Part shown: piece by piece, positions 32,201 through 32,571 of the stretch | Layout: every line of letters begins with the position of its first letter | Position numbering within the stretch: position 1 is the stretch's first letter | IMG/VR virus record: IMGVR_UViG_2509276065_000002 | Location: 1 to 64,000 of that record | Source: a virus | Lineage: Duplodnaviria > Caudoviricetes | DNA length: 64,000 bases | Strand: one strand, 5' to 3' | Notes under the pieces: model-generated | The model's database searches: none | What the model saw: the letters and a program-made list of their open reading frames with translations, nothing else | Told to the model about the DNA's origin: nothing | Made by a program: the position numbers and the translations under genes

Positions 32201-32457
32201 GCAGGCACCCGTGCCAATTCGTCATTGTTGGTTACGGAGGTCAATAAGTCAGCTGCAGCAATATTTAAGGCAGCAGCGATCTTGTCCAATTGAGCAAGTG
32301 TAGGAACTTGCTTGCCGTTCTCTAGAACACTGACCTCACCTTTTCGGCGCGGATCGCCCCAGACACGCTCAGCAAGCTCCTCCTGGTTGAGATTCGCTGC
32401 CTGACGATAGCGCCGAATATTCTGTCCAACGACGTTATTTTCGATCAGCTGAGGCAT
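32197..32457 (-). CDS. Cro-like XRE regulator (leaderless)
   Basis: VGQNIRRYRQAANLNQEELA...LENGKQVPTL; divergent from the repressor. Confidence 0.88.
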   Translation of the reverse strand: MPQLIENNVVGQNIRRYRQAANLNQEELAERVWGDPRRKGEVSVLENGKQVPTLAQLDKIAAALNIAAADLLTSVTNNDELARVPA

Positions 32458-32571
32458 GATCGAATTATGGACCTCCGTAACCAATTTGTAAAGGCCCTCC
32501 CACATAAGCATTCTCTTATGGGAAACCATAACTTATGGTGTCTCGTAACTGGAGGTTATGGGACACGCTAA
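32232..32571. promoter_or_regulatory. Five 16-bp operators, consensus TTATGG-N4-CCRTAA
   Basis: Sites at 32232 (reverse), 32465, 32516, 32533, 32556. Confidence 0.8.
32464..32492 (-). promoter_or_regulatory. Lytic promoter for cro
   Basis: TTTACA-N17-CATAAT, six nt before ATG 32457. Confidence 0.7.

Follow-up and report, generated by a model that had tools for sequence, protein, structure and literature searches.

Five 16-bp dyads in a prophage of a Deinococcaceae genome are very probably the operators of the element's own lysis/lysogeny switch, which appears to be run by relatives of DdrO and IrrE and to be insulated from the DdrO protein of the host by the geometry of its sites. This reading was developed from the sequences of the window (the whole 64-kb stretch of DNA that was analysed), the host genome and a series of related loci.

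Genetic context of the switch

The window is part of a 3.88-Mb contig; the genome, 4.51 Mb in all, itself carries ddrO and irrE. Judged by its genes, the element is an integrated tailed prophage with the predicted layout int - protease - repressor / cro - xis - early - late. The repressor gene (32618..33121, plus strand) codes for a 167-aa protein with an XRE HTH and a DdrO-type C-terminal dimerisation/cleavage domain and is by homology a full-length ddrO relative. Directly 3' of it, the protease gene (33129..33770, plus strand) specifies a 213-aa HExxH (HELGH) metalloprotease that is IrrE-like (COG2856/M78 type). Rightward follow an Abi_alpha gene (33809..34624, plus strand; Pfam E 4e-54), which is likely a superinfection-defence moron expressed together with the lysogeny genes, and then the gene of a tyrosine integrase. 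No complete tRNA gene was found by ARAGORN in the whole 64-kb window, and therefore the integrase target is not an intact tRNA inside these 64 kb.

On the minus strand, the cro-like gene (32197..32457), encoding an 86-aa HTH_3 protein, is the first gene of a leftward early operon. Its stop codon is overlapped by the start of an excisionase-family gene (31829..32200, minus strand; 123 aa, HTH_17), and genes for a DdrB homologue, a replication initiator, the terminase large subunit, portal, head protease, tape measure and baseplate hub are located further left. The DdrB homologue (29790-30509, minus strand) in the early operon is 61% identical to host DdrB (145 aa, E 7e-64), from which it differs by an additional C-terminal extension of about 90 aa; it had no match among the PHROG families.

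The probable operator array

Related dyad-symmetric sites, as expected of the operator set of a temperate phage, occur between the divergent repressor and cro-type genes of the prophage, in a stretch of lowered GC content (0.55). The five 16-bp sites listed in an earlier note on this DNA are all present where that note had placed them, and they share the putative operator consensus TTATGG-N4-CCRTAA, a dyad of the form 6-N4-6. O1 (32465..32480; TTATGG-ACCT-CCGTAA) covers spacer and -10 sequences of the predicted cro-like promoter and belongs to the proximal arm of a long inverted repeat. O2 (32516..32531; TTATGG-GAAA-CCATAA) is the sole perfect palindrome among the operators; O3 (32533..32548) follows 1 bp past it, with a start-to-start distance of 17 bp, and from O4 (32556..32571) the repressor start is 62 nt further on. 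The distal operator, OD (32232..32247), is inverted, matches O1 at 15 of 16 positions and is situated 233 bp away from it in the 3' end of the cro-like gene.

Chance is a poor explanation for this cluster. When one mismatch at most was allowed, TTATGGNNNNNNNTAA (TTATGG-N7-TAA) had 10 strand-matches in the 64-kb window compared with 1.14 expected from dinucleotide shuffling, a number that none of 100 shuffled windows reached; eight of the ten are located in 32232-32571. A scan of the genome for such sites, suggested in the earlier note as a check, found exact TTATGG-N7-TAA at four places in 4,513,714 bases. These are positions 32465, 32516, 32533 and 32556, so that the entire genomic set is contained in 107 bp, whereas the reversed pattern, used as a control, occurs at five scattered places in the genome. 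A rough Poisson estimate for four of about five genomic copies falling into one 107-bp stretch is far below 1e-10. Read from the sequence, the predicted operator array of the prophage switch is real and statistically overwhelming, and as a kind of feature it is textbook.

Position of O1 over the predicted lytic promoter

A sigma-70-type promoter is predicted for the cro-like gene at 32464..32492 on the minus strand (TTTACA-17-CATAAT; 10/12 positions matched). Its -10 element and the ATG of the cro-like gene (start 32457) are separated by 6 nt, which implies a leaderless mRNA. O1 consists of the final 11 bases of the promoter spacer (positions 7-17) plus five bases of the -10, which bears out the earlier claim that the first site overlaps the cro promoter. 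On the basis of this predicted promoter, O1 thus lies where operators are expected, i.e. over the promoter to be controlled, and likewise where an RDRM is expected, at the promoter/transcription start of the regulated gene.

The same arrangement recurs in homologous switches. Among the related loci with a detectable cro-like gene, nine of 11 have a sigma-70-like promoter (8-10 of 12 matches) with a gap of 6-7 nt between its end and the ATG. In five of the related loci (L014, L015, L025, L027 and L036) a dyad of the locus's own was read by eye in the spacer/-10 of the cro-like promoter, and such dyads often provide the TAA of the -10. That promoter/operator geometry is kept while operator sequences differ is the strongest evidence for putative repressor operators at the lytic promoter. 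Taken together with the analogous 16-bp dyads in homologous switches, this kept position backs the assignment of the sites, made in the earlier note, as probable operators of a phage switch. Predicted leaderless cro-like genes are a near-uniform trait of this prophage family (L012, L014, L015, L020, L025, L027, L031 and L036, in addition to 32457-32492 of the window).

For the repressor gene, a consensus search found no promoter on the plus strand, and a search by hand yielded weak candidates only. A site at -39 to -70 precedes the repressor genes of relatives, and O4 may therefore overlap a putative repressor promoter.

Homologous switches and the probable ligands of the dyads

Repressor and protease genes are adjacent in 27 of 29 related loci. 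In the 220 bp that precede each of the 29 repressor genes, TTA-N10-TAA turned up 16 times, spread over 10 loci, compared with 0-4 times for every other spacing from N5 to N15 and twice for N11, the RDRM spacing; dyads with TT..AA ends and at least 5/6 pairs number 11 at 16 bp versus 0-4 at other lengths, all these counts being drawn from loci that are kin and hence overstating their independence. Another 20 modules, more distant and selected via the protease, do not contain TTA-N10-TAA at all; several of these modules have TT..AA dyads of 16 bp, for example TTGGGA-N4-TCCCAA. Hence the TTA form is a trait of the sub-clade nearest to this repressor and not a family rule. The TT...AA 6-N4-6 form, by contrast, is common in the family.

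The half-site is TTATGG in this prophage and TTACTG, TTAGGC/TTAGTA, TTATAG, TTGCGA or TTGGGA in relatives. Judged by eye, the same recognition helix goes with the same half-site among related loci, i.e. the operator co-varies with the recognition helix as expected of an operator set. It is conceivable that only one HTH protein of the phage, for example the cro-like protein, binds the dyads and that the DdrO-like repressor recognises another sequence. Covariation as such cannot tell the two proteins apart because cro-like genes co-occur with the same loci. However, half-sites track the helix groups of the repressor even in loci without a detected cro-like homologue, and the 16-bp TT..AA geometry parallels that of DdrO, the homologue of the repressor. 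In the switches of lambda, 434 and TP901-1, moreover, operators are common to repressor and Cro, which also counts against binding by one protein alone. We consider such exclusive binding unlikely and favor a set of operators used by the DdrO-like repressor and probably by the cro-like protein as well.

Of 111 other Deinococcaceae genomes in the sample, 60 have the protease family, which was also detected in one of 62 genomes of a sister family and in none of 127 genomes of three other families of the phylum. Since about half of the sampled Deinococcaceae genomes have the module, it probably serves their prophages as the main switch for induction. Two metagenome scans, one viral-contig scan and a tblastn search against GenBank phages revealed no relatives. 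The genome studied here holds four copies of the protease family. At least one of the others is part of a second complete module (C1:516170-517760; L008 406-1992), which comprises an 86-aa cro-like gene, a repressor gene whose product is 36% identical to the repressor described above, and the protease gene; its intergenic repeats (CTGTTA/TAACAG) are unlike the TTATGG sites, which is consistent with a heteroimmune element. Further protease copies are located at C1:1633704 and C1:2041409.

Repressor and protease as relatives of DdrO and IrrE

Taken alone, the repressor sequence displays a generic XRE domain only. Its identity with host DdrO amounts to 50% across 30 HTH residues, and in an alignment of the repressor, two database relatives and host DdrO, conserved columns extend through the C-terminal half. 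The closest database relatives of the repressor are P0003 (56% identity) and P0004. A profile of the repressor family (25 members) compared with the PDB matched the full-length DdrO structures 6jq1, 6rnx and 6rmq from end to end (E ~1e-12) as well as the isolated DdrO C-terminal domain 6ro6 (E 1e-4), and hhalign aligned the family with host DdrO over 122 columns (97.6% probability). In the segment that corresponds to the cleavage loop of DdrO, the sequences are not the same (ARF-YTGRGP against IELRGKRP).

As a single sequence, the protease had no match in Pfam (PF06114 without score), NCBIfam or PHROGs, and its link to IrrE comes from the family profile only. This profile matched the IrrE structures 3dte and 8slm (E ~3e-18, profile positions 44-147), with the next match at 5e-6, and hhalign of the protease family against host IrrE gave 98.4%. 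Based on these profile and hhalign matches the pair is a mobile-element relative of DdrO/IrrE: by homology, a DdrO-type repressor stands next to an IrrE-like HExxH metalloprotease, the composition that characterizes IrrE/DdrO-type pairs. ImmA shares less than 15% identity with IrrE (PMC6868357); to judge from the comparisons made here, the prophage pair is closer to DdrO/IrrE than the ImmR/ImmA pair of that study is.

Predicted separation from the RDRM of the host

The RDRM is the 17-bp operator of DdrO in Deinococcus (de Groot 2019, PMC6868357). Its form TTATG-N7-CRTAA, as quoted in the earlier note, fits the host's own 17-bp sites upstream of ddrB, ddrA, cinA-recA, sbcD, radA and dinB. Makarova is said to have dealt with the RDRM of Deinococcus in 2007. 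The prophage sites had been described as RDRM-like with one base less, and this holds in both respects: TTATG/CATAA ends are common to the two kinds of site, and the lengths are 16 bp and 17 bp, respectively.

None of the five sites is a 17-bp palindrome as required for an RDRM, each of them being 16 bp long. An RDRM matrix was built from 19 host sites (38 symmetrised half-sites), which themselves score 16.6-28.3; all 17-mers in 32200-32600 score -3.4 or lower. Compared with the RDRM half-site TT[AC][TC]G[CTA], positions 1-5 of the phage half-site match (TTATG), whereas position 6 is G in five of five phage sites versus one of 38 host half-sites. With 6-N4-6 and G at position 6 on one side and 6-N5-6 on the other, separate targets are expected for host DdrO and the phage repressor. 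From the matrix scores, position 6 and the restriction of genomic TTATGG-N7-TAA to the array, we infer that phage and host regulons are separate in silico.

These differences weigh against the possibility that the five dyads are variant RDRM sites bound by host DdrO, which would place the lytic promoter in the radiation/desiccation regulon of the host, with induction by host IrrE. It could be argued in favor of this possibility that the outer five bases of the phage half-site constitute the commonest RDRM half-site, that O1 is located over a predicted -10 and transcription start just as RDRM sites are (PMC8072749), and that a good 17-bp RDRM-like site (score 16.2) exists at 36388. Apart from length, matrix score and position 6, however, the phage's own DdrO and IrrE homologues adjoin the sites, and the half-sites of related switches are quite different and follow the helix of their own repressor. 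Control by host DdrO is thus quite improbable, and we retain the phage-encoded DdrO homologue as the probable ligand of the five sites. Their likeness to the RDRM seems to be partly inherited, given that the repressor is a DdrO homologue and that 6-N4-6 with TT...AA ends recurs in relatives; as the latter use other half-sites, it also seems to be partly particular to this phage.

Two 17-bp sites that resemble the RDRM of the host deserve mention in their own right. The 17-mer TTACGCTATGAGCAAAA at 36388-36404, whose matrix score is near the lowest score of the training set, overlaps the ATG of a small ORF just past the integrase gene and may mark a host-DdrO-controlled gene at the prophage edge. 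Outside the window (G000:C1:2509484), a perfect-looking RDRM, TTATGTCATCAACATAA, precedes an XRE-type gene (229 aa) by about 87 bp, and this gene may code for another regulator under the control of host DdrO.

The distal operator

The inverted repeat around cro that had been described earlier (32228-32247 and 32465-32484; 19/20 over 20 nt) is correct, and a repeat search, which also recovered the family of 16-bp sites, lengthened its arms to 23 nt (32228-32250 and 32462-32484; 91% complementary), i.e. to 4-7 nt past the 16-bp sites. With these extended arms and a GGAGG in the 5' arm, the repeat could be taken for an RNA stem that hides GGAGG and acts on the cro-like message, either on its translation or on its stability, an idea that is highly improbable and was rejected because the predicted -10 is inside the 5' arm, 6 nt from the ATG, which makes the message leaderless and leaves the 5' arm untranscribed, and because the distal copies in relatives match dyad operators and not ribosome-binding sites.

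OD spans the codons D-L-L-T-S-V near the end of the cro-like gene. Three of these six codons are rare ones: TTA and TTG account for 2.3% and 6.8% of Leu codons, respectively, and GTA accounts for 3.0% of Val codons. Such an accumulation of rare codons argues that the DNA motif, not the protein sequence, is what selection keeps. At least five related loci (L012, L025, L026, L027 and L028) possess a distal copy of the promoter-proximal operator at a distance of 217-236 bp. These copies lie inside the cro-like gene, and each matches the operator of its own locus, the operator sequences being different between loci. In the window, L025 and L026, a ..gac-TTA.. pair of Asp and Leu codons is present towards the end of the cro-like gene, and the distal site starts with its TTA.

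By this comparison, the distal site is a conserved architectural element, which fits looping or a roadblock. A DdrO dimer binds the 17-bp RDRM, and DdrO and DNA form 4:2 complexes in vitro (PMC6868357); in view of such complexes, looping between O1 and OD via paired dimers is plausible. The spacing between O1 and OD in relatives (217-236 bp) has no common helical phase. A weaker promoter-like site (32260..32288, minus strand; TGGACA-17-AATATT), recognized by consensus match only, is located in the cro-like gene and ends 12 nt upstream of OD, which makes local repression or a roadblock as possible as looping.

Proposed mode of operation

Taking into account the arrangement of sites and genes, we propose that the full-length DdrO homologue of the phage would bind as a dimer to the 16-bp dyads TTATGG-N4-CCRTAA and that the cro-like HTH protein probably would do so too. 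Repressor bound at O1, i.e. to spacer and -10, would switch off the cro-like, xis-like, replication and morphogenesis genes, and binding to O2-O4 upstream of the repressor gene would probably serve autoregulation. OD, 233 bp downstream of O1, may either form a loop with O1 via repressor tetramers or block transcription before the excisionase-like gene. Induction would be brought about by the adjacent IrrE-like protease cutting the C-terminal domain of the repressor. The TTATG/CATAA ends that phage sites and host RDRM have in common would then reflect the homology of the two repressors.

Comparison with known systems and implications

The prophage switch combines features of several known systems. 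It resembles the RDRM system in that its sites are palindromes with TTATG...CATAA ends placed over a -10 and start (predicted here), and in that the encoded repressor is homologous to DdrO in both domains and paired with an IrrE-type protease. It differs from that system by 16-bp (6-N4-6) instead of 17-bp (6-N5-6) sites with G at position 6, and by the presence of five copies in 340 bp of prophage as opposed to single sites upstream of repair genes. With ImmR/ImmA of ICEBs1 and COG2856/XRE phage switches such as Rir/Crh of TP-J34 (PMC6868357, PMC8072749) it shares the order int ... protease-repressor, a divergent excision/lytic operon, several intergenic repressor sites (putative here) and an expected induction via the partner metalloprotease. 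Unlike ImmR, the present repressor has a DdrO-type C-terminal domain, and the protease matches IrrE far above other solved proteins.

TP901-1 CI (OR, OL and OD) and Bacillus phi105 are examples of switches with three operators, of which a distal one is situated within the first lytic gene or past it, and with cooperative looping. These phages and the prophage described here have in common that the promoter-proximal operator is repeated a few hundred bp further down the lytic operon; the repressor families are unrelated, however, and for the prophage the loop is only a proposal.

Judging by its title, a study by Wang et al. from 2025 reportedly derives PprI-DdrO from prophage ImmA-ImmR and would thus address the same evolutionary link, which connects the radiation response of Deinococcus with repressor/protease pairs of prophages. 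It is tempting to speculate, if only tentatively and with more doubt than confidence, that the host RDRM/DdrO/IrrE regulon and the family of prophage switches form two branches of a single system, split by one base of spacing and by position 6, that they amount to two stress-sensing circuits without cross-talk, and that DdrO-like tetramers loop O1 and OD.

In kind, the array remains a conventional phage operator array, part of an ordinary switch with an evolutionary link. Its special interest lies in the association of a full-length DdrO-homologue repressor and an IrrE-homologue partner with RDRM-like operators that are one base shorter. One and the same cell holds a testable pair, in which host DdrO has 17-bp sites, its phage homologue has 16-bp sites, and the half-sites are nearly identical. 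The locus thereby bears on the origin of the Deinococcus radiation response. If host regulon and prophage switch family are indeed branches of one system, a lysogen could possess two DdrO/IrrE circuits side by side, both sensing the same stress.
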